A stretch of 28,488 nt of DNA from a virus (Duplodnaviria > Heunggongvirae > Uroviricota > Caudoviricetes), in the IMG/VR virus record IMGVR_UViG_2609460354_000008, positions 1 to 28,488 of that record, one strand, 5' to 3'. Positions 222 through 28,090 of the stretch are shown piece by piece. A program made the translations under genes and the position numbers. Position 1 is the stretch's first letter; every line of letters starts with the position of its first letter. The notes under the pieces are model-generated. The model was not told where the DNA came from, ran no database searches, and saw only the letters and a list, made by a program, of their open reading frames with translations.

Positions 222-290
222 ATGGCGCTTTACACAATTGGTGAAGTGGCGTTGCTTTGTGATATTAATCCTGTCACGTTACGCGCGTGA
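222..290 (+). pseudogene. 5' fragment (22 codons then TGA) of a MerR-family HTH regulator gene, MlrA/YehV-like N-terminus (MALYTIGEVALLCDINPVTLRA*); probable host gene interrupted at the prophage boundary
   Basis: ATG at 222 preceded by an AGGGTGAG RBS-like stretch; translation matches the MerR/MlrA-type N-terminal HTH, then stops where LRAWQRRYG would be expected. The match to MlrA is from memory, not a search. Confidence 0.4.
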
Positions 291-483
291 CGCAACATTT
301 TTAAAAATCGACGAAGATCGTCCAGGAGCGCCGTTTTTCAAGGGTTGGATAGATGATTCGTTTACCATGTCGACGAACTTCGACGAATTTCGCCGATAAA
401 AAGTGTCCCATACATGCCCCATTGATGCCCCATAAACAATATCAGGAATTGACACTGGTTATCCATACAGATAAAAATAACAC

Positions 484-499
484 CTGTACATAACTACAG
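484..499. promoter_or_regulatory. LexA (SOS) box CTGT-N8-ACAG upstream of the dinI-like gene, with a TTGACA -35-like hexamer at about 449-454
   Basis: Sequence CTGTACATAACTACAG lies 16 bp upstream of the ATG at 515. AGGAGG RBS at about 504-509. Confidence 0.55.
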
Positions 500-514
500 T
501 TACAGGAGGGTGTT

Positions 515-763
515 ATGCGTGTTGAGATCTGTATCGCTAAAGAAAAAATCACTAAAATGCCAAACGGTGCTGTGGATGCGTTAAAGGAAGAATTAACCCG
601 ACGCATCAGTAAACGTTATGACGATGTAGAGGTGATCGTAAAAGCCACCAGCAACGATGGCCTTTCTGTTACGCGCACCGCCGATAAAGATTCAGCTAAA
701 ACTTTTGTTCAGGAGACTCTGAAAGATACCTGGAAGTCTGCTGACGAGTGGTTTTTTCACTAA
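515..763 (+). CDS. DinI-family DNA-damage-inducible protein (82 aa)
   Basis: Translation [11 protein letters not shown]...[16 protein letters not shown] aligns along its length with DinI (MRIEVTIAK...ETWESADDWF). Strong AGGAGG RBS and an upstream LexA box. Confidence 0.8.
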
Positions 764-866
764 TTAACACGTAAAATCGGTAACGGCTGGAAATCATTCA
801 ATACTCGCACTATCGAAAGTTCGCCAGCCAGCCGTGGCACGTTCTTGCATACGATGTGCTACGGTT

Positions 867-1421
867 TCATTCATCTCCGACCGGAAACTTCTTATACAAA
901 GTCGATACGCCAACATCATAGATGATCACCACCTTCTGGCGAGAAACTCCTGATGCAATTTGTCGTCCGGCCTGCGCCCATTGTTCTGGTGTAAGTTTGG
1001 GACGACGTCCACCAATTCGTCCCTGTGCGCGAGCAGCTTCCAGTCCAGCTTTTGTTCGTTCAACAATCAGTTCTCGTTCCATTTCAGCCAGGGCCCCCAT
1101 CACATGAAAGAAAAAGCGCCCCATTGGGGTACTGGTATCAATTGAATCCGTCAGACTACGAAAGTTGATGCCTCGTTCGCGCAACTCCTCCACCAGCACG
1201 ACAAGATGCCGCATACTGCGCCCCAGTCGGTCCAGTTTCCAGACCACCAGCGTGTCACCTGCCGATAATGTCCTGAGCAGTTTTTTCAGTCCCGGCCTTT
1301 CGGACTTTGTGCCGCTTATCTTGTCTTCAAAAATCAGCTCGCATCCTGCACAGTTCAGCGCATTACGTTGTAGATCTGTGTTCTGGTCATTTGTTGATAC
1401 GCGTACATAGCCAATAAGCAT
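867..1421 (-). CDS. pin: Serine recombinase, Pin/Gin/Hin-family DNA invertase (start set at internal Met MLIGYVRVSTNDQ)
   Basis: N-terminal catalytic motif YVRVSTNDQNTDLQ and C-terminal HTH (VSTLYKK); near-identical along its length to e14 Pin as recalled. Adjacent to a tail-fibre segment bounded by inverted repeats. Confidence 0.9.
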   Translation of the reverse strand: MLIGYVRVSTNDQNTDLQRNALNCAGCELIFEDKISGTKSERPGLKKLLRTLSAGDTLVVWKLDRLGRSMRHLVVLVEELRERGINFRSLTDSIDTSTPMGRFFFHVMGALAEMERELIVERTKAGLEAARAQGRIGGRRPKLTPEQWAQAGRQIASGVSRQKVVIIYDVGVSTLYKKFPVGDE

Positions 1422-1482
1422 GGTAGATCCCCCTGACAAAAGCAGGAATGATGCCATTTGCTCGTTATTTCTGCATTTTCAT

Positions 1483-1502
1483 AAACGTTGGTTTGGGAGA
1501 AG
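1483..1502. repeat. Left crossover site (pix/gix-like) of the invertible tail-fibre segment: AAACGTTGGTTTGGGAGAAG
   Basis: A 15-nt core TTGGTTTGGGAGAAG is present here and in inverted orientation at 3414-3428; both encode the GLGE peptide in the two alternative fibre reading frames. Confidence 0.6.
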
Positions 1503-1942
1503 CGGCAAAACGGAATGTGGGCAACGGGGAAAACCAAATCCCTGATATGTCTTTCTGGACGGTTACTGGTGGCAATGGAAATTTTGTGATTCGTCAACCT
1601 GACGGGCTAATCACTCAGATGGTTACTGTAAGTATAAGCGGTCCAGTGGCGATGAATGGAATGACTGATAATGCTTATGCCATTACAGGTTCTAATAAGT
1701 CTTATATTGCCACAGCCACATTGCCCTTTGTATTTCCTAATAAGGTGCTGGGCGTTATCCCTCTGGTATCAACAACAGCCTATGGTGGTGTATCCAGTAA
1801 TATTACAGGTTCATACGCGACGGCGGTTTGTTCTTTTGCCGCTGTCCGGGGGAATAATACGATTGTATTCAAAGTCGACAAACCACTGAATGCAGCCTTT
1901 CCTTCAGATACCAGCGTCTCAGCGTTAATCATTGGACGGTAA
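1503..1942 (+). CDS. Alternative tail-fibre C-terminal variable segment, silent in this orientation (would fuse to the constant N-terminus after inversion)
   Basis: Plus-strand ORF inside the invertible segment; its NVGLGE matches NLGLGE at the crossover in the expressed fibre; followed by its own tail-fibre assembly gene. Confidence 0.55.
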
Positions 1943-1944
1943 TA

Positions 1945-2388
1945 ATGAACTCAGTATTCTTTTCACCCGGAAGTAAAAGTTTTTATCTACAAGAATTGTT
2001 TCCAGAATATGAGGATGCGGGAACGCTTCCAGATGATGTTATTGAAATTACCCGAGAAACATATGAGAAATTTCTTGGGCTGCATCCAGAAGGGAAAGAA
2101 ATTGGCGCTGACAGTTCAGGACGGCCAATATGGATTAATTCCCCACCGCCTTCAAAAGAGGATGAGGTGTTGATGGCTGAAATGAAAAAAATATCTTTGG
2201 TTTCAGAAGCCAATACTTACATCAATACCCATCAGTGGCCTGGCAAAGCTGCTATTGGTCGTCTGAAAGGTAACGAGCTGGAGCAATATAATTTATGGCT
2301 GGATTATCTGGACGCACTGGAACTGGTTGATCCCTCCAGTGCTCCAGATATTGAATGGCCTACGCCTCCGGCAGTTCAGGCCAGATGA
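1945..2388 (+). CDS. Tail fibre assembly protein (alternative copy, inside the invertible segment)
   Basis: 147 aa; C-terminus ...LWLDYLDALELVDPSSAPDIEWPTPP is Tfa-like and parallels the C-terminus of the convergent copy (AVLDYIDAVTATDTSTAPNVIWPELPEA). Confidence 0.7.
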   Translation: MNSVFFSPGSKSFYLQELFPEYEDAGTLPDDVIEITRETYEKFLGLHPEGKEIGADSSGRPIWINSPPPSKEDEVLMAEMKKISLVSEANTYINTHQWPGKAAIGRLKGNELEQYNLWLDYLDALELVDPSSAPDIEWPTPPAVQAR

Positions 2389-2962
2389 CATTCGGCGCGG
2401 TGCTGGTATCTGTTGCCGTCACCGCGTCAATATAATCCAGCACAGCGTTAAGTCTGGTGTTTTCTGGCTGCGTCAGCTTCCGCCCGGCCTGTAATTTCAG
2501 TTGAATCAGACTGATGGAAGCCATTGCAGCATCAATCAGCGACTGGCGCTGTGCTTCTGCCGCTTCTACTGCGGCGCTATGCTGTGCCTCGGTATCCGTC
2601 ACCCATTTCTCACCATCCCATTTATCGTATGGCGTTAACGGGGCGATAGTGGTTGTATTTTCAGGGTAATCACCCGGAGCTGTGATTTCTTTTGATTCTC
2701 CTGTTTCAGTGCTATAGACCGTTTCACCGCGATGGTCTGGCACATATTCCCATGAGTTAAAATCTGCAGAACGGCAAATTGCATAACCAGCTTTATATGA
2801 GCCAGGAGCATCTAAACAGGAACATGCCGGGATACCGACACCCACAGCAAGATATTCAGTTGATGTGGAAATATATTCTCGTGTTTCACAATCATAGTTA
2901 TAAACGGTAATATTCCCTGCCGCAGTAGCAATCAATTCACTATTTAATTCTGCATTATTCAT
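2360..2962 (-). CDS. Tail fibre assembly protein (copy in the expressed orientation)
   Basis: 200 aa immediately downstream of, and start/stop-overlapping, the tail fibre gene; Tfa-like C-terminus. Confidence 0.75.
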   Translation of the reverse strand: MNNAELNSELIATAAGNITVYNYDCETREYISTSTEYLAVGVGIPACSCLDAPGSYKAGYAICRSADFNSWEYVPDHRGETVYSTETGESKEITAPGDYPENTTTIAPLTPYDKWDGEKWVTDTEAQHSAAVEAAEAQRQSLIDAAMASISLIQLKLQAGRKLTQPENTRLNAVLDYIDAVTATDTSTAPNVIWPELPEA

Positions 2963-3717
2963 TATGCGGCCCTCACGATATAGTTAAATGCAATATTACG
3001 CGGACGAAGTTCTGGTGATACCGGAGTCGAACCGCTGACATTAAACGTGTAATCAAACACGGAACCTGATCCAGATGAAGTAGATAAAGTTTCAGCATTT
3101 TTACTTTTTGCTACAGAAACACCACCTAAACCATTTGTTTGTTTAACAGCAAAAAGACCATTAAACGTTCCTGAAATAGACGGCATACCATGAGATTGCG
3201 CAGTGAGAATCCCCCTGCCACTATCAACGCCTCTTCCATCATCCCAGCCACGCATAAACTCACCACGTAAATCAGGCAATTTATTTGTCGGGTAAGCCTT
3301 TGCCAGTTCTGGGTATTCTTCAGCAGAAAAAGCCGCACCATTGCATTTCAGCCAGCCTGTTGGCGGAGTGGCTGCAGGCCACGGAACAGGCACACCAACG
3401 GGTAACGCCGAACCTTCTCCCAAACCAAGGTTTTCGAGAGCCGTTTTCACCGTGCCGTCCGATTTGATATCGCCAAACGGATTTTTGCGGCTTAACAGCA
3501 GCGCACGAAGCGCGGTAAGCAACTGGTCGTGCCGCCCTTTCTCCAGGCTGGCACCGGAGGCCTCCACAACGCTGCAAAGCTCCTCCTGCAACATGTCAAA
3601 GTAGTCATTATCCAGATCGGTGGCAGGTGTGCCGGTCTGGGGGTTACCACGGGTAAAACCGTTCTTACCCGCGCCGAACTTATCCTTCTGCGCGGTTTTC
3701 GTGTCTATACGATGCAT
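2962..3717 (-). CDS. Tail fibre protein with tail-collar domain; constant N-terminal part (about aa 1-96) outside the invertible segment, variable C-terminal part inside
   Basis: 251 aa; [20 protein letters not shown]...[14 protein letters not shown] matches the phage tail-collar domain; the crossover site lies inside the ORF. Confidence 0.8.
3414..3433. repeat. Right crossover site of the invertible segment (inverted copy of 1483-1502); plus strand reads CCAAACCAAGGTTTTCG around an AA centre, hix/gix-like
   Basis: Reverse complement GAAAACCTTGGTTTGGGAGAAG shares the 15-nt core with the left site. Confidence 0.6.
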
Positions 3718-23089: not shown

Positions 23090-23370
23090 TTCGCTTCCTT
23101 AGCAGTCCGATAAGTACTGTCTGCTCATCCAACCTAACGAATGTAGATCAGAATGACAAGTCTTTCGCGCTAATTTCAATTTGATATCTGTTCGTAAACA
23201 TGATGGCGCGAAATATTACGCATGAAGTGCTTCTACATCAACATAAAAGTTACTTTTTTTGTGTTCACAGCATGTAAAGTAAAAGCCCCGCACGATGGCG
23301 AGGCTGTTAATTCTTTGTCGACCAACAAAGCTATGGCGACGATATCAGATTTACATGAAATATAAGCGTT

Positions 23371-24060
23371 TCAGTTCGGTTTTGCAAGACTTACGTGCGA
23401 ACTTGTCGCCTTTTGTTGTGAACGTGATCGCGTTACTGAGATAAGCGCACCGCTATCGAGTCGCATAAAGCAGCTACGCATTGCCAACCAGTGAGGCAGG
23501 TATGTCTCTGTCCAGGTGGATTTCGCCACGCCAACCAGTTCCGCCAGCTTCTGGTATTCGTAGGCATCTTTCCCGACCAACCCTGCTTTGACATCCTGCG
23601 CTGCCAGCCATATCAGCTTCTTCAGGCGCTCCATGGTCTTGCCTGCCACCCTCTTCGCGCCGAGATACCCCCTGAATTCAGACCACGCCCACTGGGTGAT
23701 CGCCACCTGGTATTCAAAGCTGACGTTTTCACTGTAACTCCACAGCAACCACGCTTTCTGATGTTCTTCGAGAGACAGAACCGCGCGGCGCCATGAAGAT
23801 GTTGAGAACTCAACCTGGCTGACCAGTGCAATGGATGAACCTTTTGCGTACGACTGCTTACCGGAAATCGGCGGATTATCCAGCGTAATCATCTTGCCCG
23901 TTACCTCATCCAGAATGCGCGGCTTCTTTCGTTTATATGTACCAGTATCAAATTGTGCATGCTCCAGCCAGGCTTCAAGCTGGCCTTTCGTTGCTCCGCT
24001 CAAATCAGCAGTAGCCACAATGAGTTGCTCGCGGACATACTGTAAATATTGGGTATTCAT
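23371..24060 (-). CDS. Putative late-gene antiterminator Q (long Q-type); assignment by position
   Basis: 229 aa; translationally coupled to ylcG (ATGA overlap), downstream of rusA and upstream of the lysis cassette. Confidence 0.45.
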   Translation of the reverse strand: MNTQYLQYVREQLIVATADLSGATKGQLEAWLEHAQFDTGTYKRKKPRILDEVTGKMITLDNPPISGKQSYAKGSSIALVSQVEFSTSSWRRAVLSLEEHQKAWLLWSYSENVSFEYQVAITQWAWSEFRGYLGAKRVAGKTMERLKKLIWLAAQDVKAGLVGKDAYEYQKLAELVGVAKSTWTETYLPHWLAMRSCFMRLDSGALISVTRSRSQQKATSSHVSLAKPN

Positions 24061-26778: not shown

Positions 26779-27444
26779 TTACAGCCGTTCAGAACGTAAA
26801 TGCGTCAATACTCGACTCCACTTATCATCCTGCCACGGCCGGAATTTTACATGTGCCGTTTCTCTGGCAAGGATTTCGCGCGCCTTATGTAGTATCTGGG
26901 GATATTCTTGCTCGATGGAAGCAAAGCGACCGGCTTCGCGGTGCTCCGCAACCTGAAGAAGTAGAGTAACATTCTGGCAGGCGGTTAACATCACATCCCC
27001 TGCTCGCCATAACCAAGCAAGTGTGCAAAGTTCGTTATCAGTGAATTGTTTTATGATTGGGGATTGTTGAACTTCTCGATCGAGAATATCCAGAACCCAA
27101 CGGCGGAACTCTTTGGCTACAGGAGTGCGGGCGAACATGGCGATCAAATGGGCTCCGCGGAGAGAGAAAACGCGTACTTTCTTCTTCAAGTTTCGAGTAC
27201 TTTTCGAGGTACTCAGATCAAGTACCTCGACATCATTCTCTGAGGTACTGACTTCAAGCACTCTAGTCATACTACTGGAAAATTCGTCAGCATATTTGTT
27301 GTAAATCATCGTGACTGCGCGACTATTCGAATACTTCAGTGCTCTTGCTAGGTTGGATGAAGTTAGCCATATTCCGGCAATATTTGCCACTGGCACTAGT
27401 GCTTCACCTTGGAAGTTCAGATCTGATGTTGCTACAATACTCAT
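26779..27444 (-). CDS. Bro-N domain antirepressor-like protein (start set at Met28, AAGGAA RBS; alternative start at 27525)
   Basis: N-terminal Bro-N-like pattern (LNFQGEALVPVANIAGIW...FSLRGAHLIAMFARTPVAKEFRRWVLDILDREV); downstream of the Arc-like gene. Confidence 0.55.
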   Translation of the reverse strand: MSIVATSDLNFQGEALVPVANIAGIWLTSSNLARALKYSNSRAVTMIYNKYADEFSSSMTRVLEVSTSENDVEVLDLSTSKSTRNLKKKVRVFSLRGAHLIAMFARTPVAKEFRRWVLDILDREVQQSPIIKQFTDNELCTLAWLWRAGDVMLTACQNVTLLLQVAEHREAGRFASIEQEYPQILHKAREILARETAHVKFRPWQDDKWSRVLTHLRSERL

Positions 27445-27514
27445 GTCGATATTTCCTTCGCGGTTATTTTCGATAGAAGCCCCTAAGGTTGCCGCCAGTG
27501 GGGCTTCGCTGTTT

Positions 27515-27673
27515 CTAGCGAGCATGTATCCGTGCTCTAAATTTCAATGCCCATACAAGCGCCTGAACAATAGCTGCGTTCTCAGACATCCCTTCCTCCT
27601 GAGCAATTCGCTTGAATTCATCCTTCACTTTTTGCGGATAGCGAAGGGTAATTTTTACCTCTTTCTTTTCCAT
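27515..27673 (-). CDS. Arc-like ribbon-helix-helix repressor (52 aa)
   Basis: MEKKEVKITLRYPQKVKDEFKRIAQEEGMSENAAIVQALVWAL has the RHH beta-strand/helix pattern; GAGG RBS; divergent from the Mnt-like gene. Confidence 0.55.
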   Translation of the reverse strand: MEKKEVKITLRYPQKVKDEFKRIAQEEGMSENAAIVQALVWALKFRARIHAR

Positions 27674-27772
27674 TGACATAACCTCATGAGGCCACAATGA
27701 CACCATGAGGCCATAATGCCACCATTGAATTGATGTGGCAATATGGCACCATTCATTTTTTTGGGGGTTCCA

Positions 27773-28090
27773 ATGGCTGACAAACAAGTAAAAGACTACG
27801 ATAAGTTTAACCTCCGTTTCCCTGATGGGATGCGTGAAGCTATAGCTGAACGAGCCAAACGAAACGGGCGCTCAATGAATTCAGAAATCATTCAAATACT
27901 CCAAGATGCCATAGAAGGAAGTTCTGAACTATCTAAACGTTTAAATTTAGTTGGGTTTATTCGAGGTGACAGAGAGATACGTGACCTGGAAGATAATGCA
28001 AGCAAACTTGCGTTGTATATCGATCATAGAACACAAGAGTTTAAACAAATTTTATTGGAAGATTTAAAATTACTCCTTAATCATGATTAA
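27773..28090 (+). CDS. Mnt/Arc-family ribbon-helix-helix repressor (Mnt-like, 105 aa)
   Basis: FNLRFPDGMREAIAERAKRNGRSMNSEIIQILQDAI aligns with P22 Mnt (FNFRMP...ANGRSMNSELLQIVQDAL) and Arc; GGGGG RBS before the ATG. Confidence 0.7.
   Translation: MADKQVKDYDKFNLRFPDGMREAIAERAKRNGRSMNSEIIQILQDAIEGSSELSKRLNLVGFIRGDREIRDLEDNASKLALYIDHRTQEFKQILLEDLKLLLNHD

Follow-up and report, generated by a model that had tools for sequence, protein, structure and literature searches.

A dinI-like gene close to the end of an E. coli prophage raises the question of whether such a gene forms a unit of its own under the control of LexA, and whether its product could act on RecA and thereby on prophage induction. 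We addressed this question in a stretch of 28,488 nucleotides of viral DNA (IMG/VR record IMGVR_UViG_2609460354_000008, positions 1 to 28,488), hereafter called the window. Our reading, to which we assign a probability of about 0.8, is that an autonomous LexA-repressed dinI cassette of ~420 bp (449-866) lies beside the attachment site of an mlrA/yehV prophage. The feature is already known as a common and widespread SOS-controlled prophage gene and is not new; on its own it is of little consequence, as the class has already been supported experimentally in Salmonella. The present analysis adds a predicted second LexA operator, in a double-operator design that is typical of the E. coli/Stx-phage clade, together with the exact bounds of the cassette, from the -35 hexamer to a terminator hairpin. 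It also points to an E. coli clade that is without an antirepressor partner and in which the predicted RecA contacts are intact despite a loss of acidity.

In the mechanism that we propose, the two operators would be bound by LexA dimers in the undamaged lysogen, one at the -35 hexamer and spacer and the second at the start of transcription, and the sigma-70 promoter would be kept closed independently of the phage's own repressor. Upon DNA damage, RecA* would promote LexA self-cleavage and the promoter would consequently fire. A monocistronic mRNA ending at the 830-866 hairpin would then be translated from a strong ribosome-binding site, yielding an 82-aa DinI homologue. By homology, this protein would sit in the groove of the RecA filament, a site common to LexA, UmuD and lambda-type CI, where it would stabilise the filament and compete with cleavable substrates. 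The DinI supplied by the prophage would in this way supplement the host's own DinI.

The prophage end and its surroundings

The chromosomal part of the window comprises positions 1-289, and phage DNA begins at ~290. The 5′ end of mlrA (yehV) lies at 222-289, where the gene is cut after ~22 codons, and the core of the attachment site was located by homology to AP000400.1, in which yehV′ and the VT1-Sakai attachment site are marked at L001 1481-1500 (offset 1211). The dinI-like gene is situated ~225 nt from this core, inside one prophage end, which bears out the position at a prophage end that had been proposed for it in an earlier note on this DNA. The remainder of the window belongs to the same prophage, whose late operon is on the minus strand and directed toward dinI. 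A pin-type invertase gene (867..1457, minus strand) and an invertible tail-fibre segment are found downstream of dinI. The prophage also encodes baseplate, sheath, tape-measure, head and terminase genes, with a tail module of the myovirus type, as well as a Q antiterminator, RusA, NinB and an Ant/Arc/Mnt-like region.

Comparison with other prophages indicated that the window has two kinds of relatives. The match is to the O157 yehV prophage end over positions 1-874 (97.5%) and to a dusA-integrated myovirus-type prophage over positions 449-1500 (95%), the megablast match to the latter beginning at 449. The window is a mosaic, its two parts joined within the shared dinI cassette patch. The presence of this shared patch at the mosaic junction suggests that the dinI cassette may act as a recombination linker between prophage modules. 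The cassette serves as a homology patch common to otherwise unrelated prophage ends.

Other features of this prophage were observed in the course of the analysis. The invertible segment (region 867-3433) is bounded by 20-nt inverted repeats at 1483-1502 and 3414-3433, which are 95% complementary, and encodes alternative C-termini of the tail fibre together with two tail-fibre assembly genes in opposite orientation. The pin/Gin-type serine invertase and the segment constitute a host-range switch of the Mu G, P1 C and e14 P type. A match to the Rfam isrJ sRNA (23282-23355, minus strand; 64.9 bits, compared with a gathering score of 37) is located directly downstream of the Q antiterminator gene (23374-24060, minus strand). 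In lambdoid phages, the leader transcript of the late promoter is located just after the Q antiterminator gene. Near the far end, at 26782-28087, the window contains a P22 immI-like module (Table 1).

Table 1. Coordinates of the dinI-like locus, its attachment site and the immI-like module in the window
Feature	Position	Strand	Basis
Attachment-site core in truncated mlrA (yehV), prophage/chromosome junction	270..289		AP000400.1 annotation at homologous positions
-35 hexamer TTGACA, left limit of conserved cassette	449..454	+	Direct reading, promoter scan
Predicted SOS box 1 (CACTGGTTATCCATACAGAT), over -35 hexamer and spacer	453..472		15.7 bits, matrix scan
Predicted -10 region, TAAAAA (17-nt spacer) or AAAAAT (18-nt spacer)	472..478	+	Promoter scan
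Predicted SOS box 2 (ACCTGTACATAACTACAGTT), between -10 and ribosome-binding site	482..501		17.6 bits, matrix scan
Ribosome-binding site AGGAGG, 5 nt before ATG	504..509	+	Direct reading
dinI-like gene, 82 aa and stop, ATG at 515	515..763	+	ORF list, Pfam, PDB alignment
Terminator-like hairpin, 14-bp stem, 9-nt loop	830..866	+	Folding, -19.7 kcal/mol
Ant-type antirepressor	26782-27525	minus	P22 immI-like module
Arc/Mnt-like ribbon-helix-helix gene	27518-27787	minus	P22 immI-like module
Arc/Mnt-like ribbon-helix-helix gene	27743-28087	plus	P22 immI-like module

Promoter and predicted LexA operators

The anatomy of the region upstream of dinI can be read directly from the window (Table 1). The TTGACA hexamer, a LexA-box core (CTGTACATAACTACAG, 484-499) and the strong ribosome-binding site AGGAGG are all present where the earlier note had placed them, the core lying within SOS box 2. 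The note had described one LexA box and a separate -35 hexamer; the box at 484-499 stands, but it is not the only one, as a second box overlaps TTGACA. The best promoter found by scanning was TTGACA-18 nt-AAAAAT, with 10 of 12 matches, and its predicted transcription start falls under box 2. With box 1 lying across the -35 hexamer and spacer and box 2 across the expected transcription start, the predicted geometry suits repression. The promoter has a GC content of 36%, compared with 43% for the dinI-like gene and 54% for the tail and head genes.

LexA-like sequences may occur by chance or may be preserved merely as parts of a promoter, in which case the gene would be constitutive or controlled by the phage. 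The bare motif CTGT-N8-ACAG is compatible with such an explanation, being observed once when 0.31 occurrences are expected per window, and at least once in 28 of 100 shuffles. Furthermore, box 1 overlaps the -35 hexamer and spacer, so its conservation could partly reflect promoter function. As the count of the bare motif was not significant, we relied instead on a weight-matrix scan and on footprinting. The LexA matrix was symmetrised, with 26 E. coli LexA sites as its training set, and is a scoring aid rather than a published matrix. With this matrix, boxes 2 and 1 were the best and second-best sites, respectively, of the 28.5-kb window, located 29 bp apart, and both scores fell inside the range of the training sites (12.7-26.6 bits). 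Among 300 block shuffles, a single one contained any site in 28.5 kb that reached the score of box 2. The approximate Berg-von Hippel-type heterology index, computed on the same site set, was 7.1 (box 2) and 9.0 (box 1), and these were the sole two 20-mers of the window at or below 12. The third-best matrix match (27273-27292, 11.9 bits) is inside the ant ORF and was dismissed as chance, since it scores below all training sites; the matrix scan found no credible LexA box in the Ant/Arc/Mnt-like region (26.8-28.1 kb).

The same arrangement is found in VT1-Sakai, the Stx1 phage corresponding to prophage Sp15 of E. coli O157:H7 Sakai (AP000400.1), which uses the same yehV/mlrA integration site. 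Its DNA is 97% identical over window positions 290-868, its H0001 protein is 96% identical to the window protein, and its -35, -10 and SOS box 2 are identical to those of the window. Part of this anatomy was annotated in 2000, when AP000400.1 recorded a 'putative promoter of H0001 and H0002' (window 449-477), a 'LexA protein, putative SOS box' (window 482-501) and 'H0001, DNA-damage-inducible protein I'. The VT1-Sakai sequence also contains box 1, which is unmarked in that record, where a single SOS box is annotated. The two prophages differ downstream of dinI, where VT1-Sakai has a YkgJ-like ORF (H0002) and lambda-type tail fibre genes whereas the window has the convergent pin gene and the myovirus-type tail module.

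To assess conservation, we collected close relatives with protein identities of 94-100% (80 viral-contig loci and 4 genomic loci, the latter from a single-protein scan of genome contigs) and 11 further phage or chromosomal loci with diverged homologues, obtained by tblastn against the phage collection. Upstream regions of 63 loci were aligned with MAFFT and represented 29 distinct variants. All 29 variants of the close clade keep both boxes, box 1 at -61/-62 and box 2 at -33 from the ATG, usually with scores of 20-25 bits, and box 1 commonly reads CACTGTTTATCCATACAGTT at 20-24 bits. In both boxes, the bases that vary are the central and outer ones, and the CTG and CAG half-sites are near-invariant; the sole departure is the CAA found in box 1 of BP-4795. 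The -10 region sequence TAAAAATAA is also nearly invariant across the alignment. The box version shared by the window and VT1-Sakai is among the weakest, with lower scores only in BP-4795 (15.3 bits for both boxes). Because the window boxes are among the weakest variants, at 15.7 and 17.6 bits, repression may be leakier here than in most relatives.

Homologues with 35-51% protein identity have one box each, scoring 23.6-25.6 bits and positioned at -38/-39; this set consists of three Klebsiella phages, Gifsy-2 STM1019, mEp237_048 and SEN34_54. The chromosomal dinI gene of K-12 (b1061) is likewise preceded by an SOS box (22.6 bits), a single one at -39 in contrast to the two of the window, and at the same offset as in the diverged phage homologues. 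Altogether, a strong box was found in all of the intact diverged lineages examined (8, including K-12 dinI and YeP3), and boxes were absent only from damaged copies, namely L003, which is disrupted by IS1, and L096, which is truncated at its 5′ end and has lost the promoter. In L003 (IMGVR_UViG_2859799533_000009), an IS1 terminal repeat (GGTGATGCTGCCAACTTAC, complementary strand) lies between box 2 and the ribosome-binding site, with the IS1 end just upstream of the ATG at 345, and the encoded DinI protein is identical. Given the position of this insertion, dinI in L003 is severed from the LexA-controlled promoter.

Box conservation of this kind is, as judged from the alignments, what selection for LexA binding would predict. 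Experiments on related systems point in the same direction. The Salmonella prophages Gifsy-1, -2 and -3 carry LexA-controlled dinI-gfoA/gftA-irsA operons (Lemire, Figueroa-Bossi and Bossi, 2011; PMC3121763). Replacement of the LexA-box region of a Gifsy dinI promoter abolished the response to mitomycin C, and Gifsy DinI protein builds up after mitomycin C treatment (PMC3121763). All three dinI genes of the Gifsy prophages rose 4.6-23 fold upon treatment with nalidixic acid (Merida-Floriano et al., 2021; PMC8072944). LexA control of the gene, as advanced in the earlier note, therefore draws support both from the boxes kept in the 29 variants and in all intact diverged lineages and from the Gifsy experiments, and we infer that LexA probably binds at this locus. 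The explanation by chance or by promoter conservation, on the other hand, is extremely unlikely. It would have to account for the two top matrix matches of 28.5 kb standing side by side in one promoter, and for half-sites that are near-invariant around variable central bases in a spacer and a post -10 region that are normally unconstrained. It would also have to account for a strong box at a fixed offset in independent lineages with unrelated promoters and for the functional state of the homologous Gifsy boxes.

A literature search by EHEC locus tags and keywords found no LexA-binding or expression experiments for the E. coli/Stx-phage clade. Three apparent leads were discarded: ECs2940 is a tail fibre gene and not an EHEC prophage dinI copy, Z3305 occurs only in an unrelated transcriptome, and an EDL933 radioresistance preprint deals with chromosomal dinI rather than with prophage copies.

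The DinI-like protein

The assignment of the gene product to the DinI family, made in the earlier note, is settled by two matches. The Pfam DinI profile PF06183 was matched over positions 1-63 of 63 with 67.7 bits (cut-off 24.2; E 1.1e-18), and residues 1-81 aligned end to end with residues 1-79 of E. coli DinI (PDB 1GHH/7YWA; E 1.2e-11; 44% identity), 7YWA being the complex with the RecA filament. The K-12 gene is a chromosomal core gene, however, while the window dinI belongs to a mobile prophage cassette.

In the cryo-EM structure of E. coli DinI on RecA, the contacts comprise a pocket formed by L13, L21, W71, W77 and F78 and an acidic patch toward RecA formed by E24, E69 and D76 (Gao et al., 2023; PMC9926225). 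The residues aligned with the pocket in the window protein are M15, L23, W73, W79 and F80, and those aligned with the acidic patch are E26, D71 and E78. Thus, all 8 of the 8 contact positions are identical or conservatively replaced, and this alignment with E. coli DinI makes binding in the RecA filament groove likely. Modulation of RecA, and hence an effect on induction, is plausible in view of these conserved residues. The overall charge of the two proteins is nevertheless different, with a net charge of -0.4 for the window protein vs -5.4 for K-12 DinI. Moreover, the window protein has K74 (codon 734-736) where at least 90% of the aligned homologues have Glu (E72 in K-12 numbering), and the 96%-identical VT1-Sakai protein also has Glu at this position. 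K74 reverses the charge at a position in the RecA-facing C-terminal helix. Owing to the near-neutral charge and K74, the interaction with RecA may differ from that of K-12 DinI.

Could the DinI-like protein instead be an antirepressor, or another effector that does not act on RecA? Coliphage 186 offers a precedent of sorts, as its tum gene is LexA-controlled, lies near the prophage end and encodes a DinI-like C-terminal half, and is split in PSP3 and Fels-2 (PMC3121763). In addition, the window protein is much less acidic than host DinI and has a reversed charge at a conserved acidic position, and expression of host DinI changed Zorya II defence in one preprint (PMC13192584). However, 186 Tum has 146 aa including an N-terminal antirepressor half, whereas the window protein consists of the DinI domain alone, and in PSP3, where tum is split, antirepressor activity was reported in the non-DinI half (PMC3121763). 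The retention of all mapped RecA contacts likewise argues against a non-RecA function, and the window already encodes a separate Ant-type antirepressor with Arc/Mnt-like regulators. We therefore consider an effector of this kind very unlikely, and retain the reading of a RecA-binding DinI homologue. Phage DinI has itself been speculated to limit induction, in a paper on Stx2a phages (PMC8456039).

A related arrangement was observed in the Yersinia phage YeP3 (L092, MK733261.1), in which a 25.9-bit SOS box (273-292) is located 20 nt before a 91-aa ORF (312..587) and dinI (598..843) begins 10 nt after that ORF, the gene order being that of 186 Tum, PSP3 and Fels-2. Given the antirepressor-then-DinI order of PSP3 and Fels-2, the 91-aa ORF is a candidate LexA-controlled antirepressor.

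Boundaries, partners and spread of the cassette

Homology among the relatives ends abruptly on both sides of the dinI unit. The left limit is exactly the -35 hexamer, which is preceded by at least 6 unrelated flanks, including attachment-site arms and the end of an integrase gene. The right limit is the hairpin, ~100 nt past the dinI stop codon, after which more than 10 different flanks were found. The neighbours include attachment-site arms, an integrase gene, pin, nleC, a putative avirulence (effector-like) gene and a YkgJ-like ORF. These sharp limits and the many unrelated flanks on both sides indicate that the dinI unit is a true cassette, or "moron", which is the term that had been applied to it in the earlier note and to which the lower GC content relative to the structural genes also corresponds. 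By its predicted promoter and terminator, sharp limits, varied neighbours and distinct composition, the unit falls within the usual definition of a phage moron.

The hairpin was more stable than expected on the dinI-sense strand (z -2.4, with 3 of 200 shuffles as stable) but not on the opposite strand (z -0.03). This sense specificity is due to four G-U pairs that are confined to the sense RNA. The hairpin segment of 82 of 90 loci has a stable fold (dG <= -12), and stem changes preserved pairing in the variants inspected. In the commonest relatives, the hairpin is followed by UUUUUCUUUUU and is thus a canonical intrinsic terminator, an assessment of the U-tract that was based on the variant sequences and structures and not on an automatic count. 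In the window, where the 3′ end of pin abuts the hairpin, the U-tract is degraded to UUUCAUUCAU. As the hairpin is here without a good U-tract, read-through of transcription into the convergent pin gene may occur.

The cassette is widespread: among 5,426 complete E. coli genomes, about a third (1,749) have it, with as many as 7 copies in one genome. Its partners are what most clearly distinguish it from the Gifsy operons. In Gifsy-2, mEp237, SEN34 and a Klebsiella phage, dinI has a small ORF directly after it, and in the Gifsy prophages induction is triggered by such a small downstream gene, gfoA or gftA, which encodes the antirepressor, while non-polar dinI deletions in Gifsy-1 and Gifsy-3 left induction without significant change (PMC3121763). 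The Gifsy operons also have a single box, at -39, and are located inside the prophage downstream of the replication genes, as opposed to the two boxes and the position adjacent to the attachment site in the window, and the proteins are ~40% identical. In the window, no antirepressor ORF was found downstream of dinI in three frames, and no ORF starts in the 103-nt gap before the convergent pin gene; a 39-aa plus-strand ORF that starts with GTG at 834 and extends into pin in antisense orientation was considered spurious. Because no gene is co-transcribed with the window dinI, the link to induction via an antirepressor that operates in Gifsy cannot apply here.

The missing partner may be taken to mean that the cassette is the remnant of a LexA-controlled induction operon from which the antirepressor was lost, the ancestral form being either dinI followed by an antirepressor, as in Gifsy, or an antirepressor followed by dinI, as in 186 Tum, PSP3 and YeP3. 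The SOS promoter would then be functional and DinI a passenger without a role in induction. The small ORF after dinI in the four phages named above, the silent dinI deletions in Gifsy and the short gap without an ORF start in the window would all fit such a history. On the other hand, the stand-alone form is strongly conserved, with an intact ORF, its own hairpin, the double operator and the wide distribution described above, which argues for selection on DinI itself and against operon decay. The ~40% protein identity between the window and Gifsy clades also implies that both architectures are old. We regard the remnant history as unlikely, and an autonomous LexA-repressed cassette whose DinI is itself maintained remains our preferred reading.

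A further proposal goes beyond this reading. The stand-alone, double-operator, near-neutral DinI proteins of E. coli prophages could form a distinct functional branch rather than extra copies of host DinI, being a late-SOS phage tool that occupies the RecA groove. We put this forward as a long shot. If it were so, groove occupancy might time or damp repressor cleavage in the carrier prophage or in co-resident rival prophages, or might alter the view that defence systems have of RecA-coated DNA. DinI dosage, at up to 7 copies per genome, would then set induction thresholds in poly-lysogens such as EHEC. More generally, if the dosage of prophage DinI tunes RecA-dependent repressor cleavage, the cassette would be of relevance to the induction of Shiga-toxin phages.

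Two observations concern the neighbours of the cassette. In the Stx1 phage BP-4795 (L088, NC_004813.1; 248-1093), the next gene on the same strand after the two boxes and dinI is ORF84, which bears the annotation 'putative avirulence protein' and which we take to encode an NleA-like type III effector. Judging from this arrangement, the effector gene might receive SOS-dependent read-through transcription. In addition, the match of several E. coli chromosomes to the window begins only at position 706, covers the 3′ end of dinI and the downstream block, and lies just upstream of ykgJ; an example is E. coli EC21Z-137 (L098, NZ_CP101233.1), where the match lies near locus position 1890 between ecpE and ykgJ. 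Considering that VT1-Sakai has a YkgJ-like ORF after dinI, the ecpE-ykgJ spacer may hold a relic of such a cassette.
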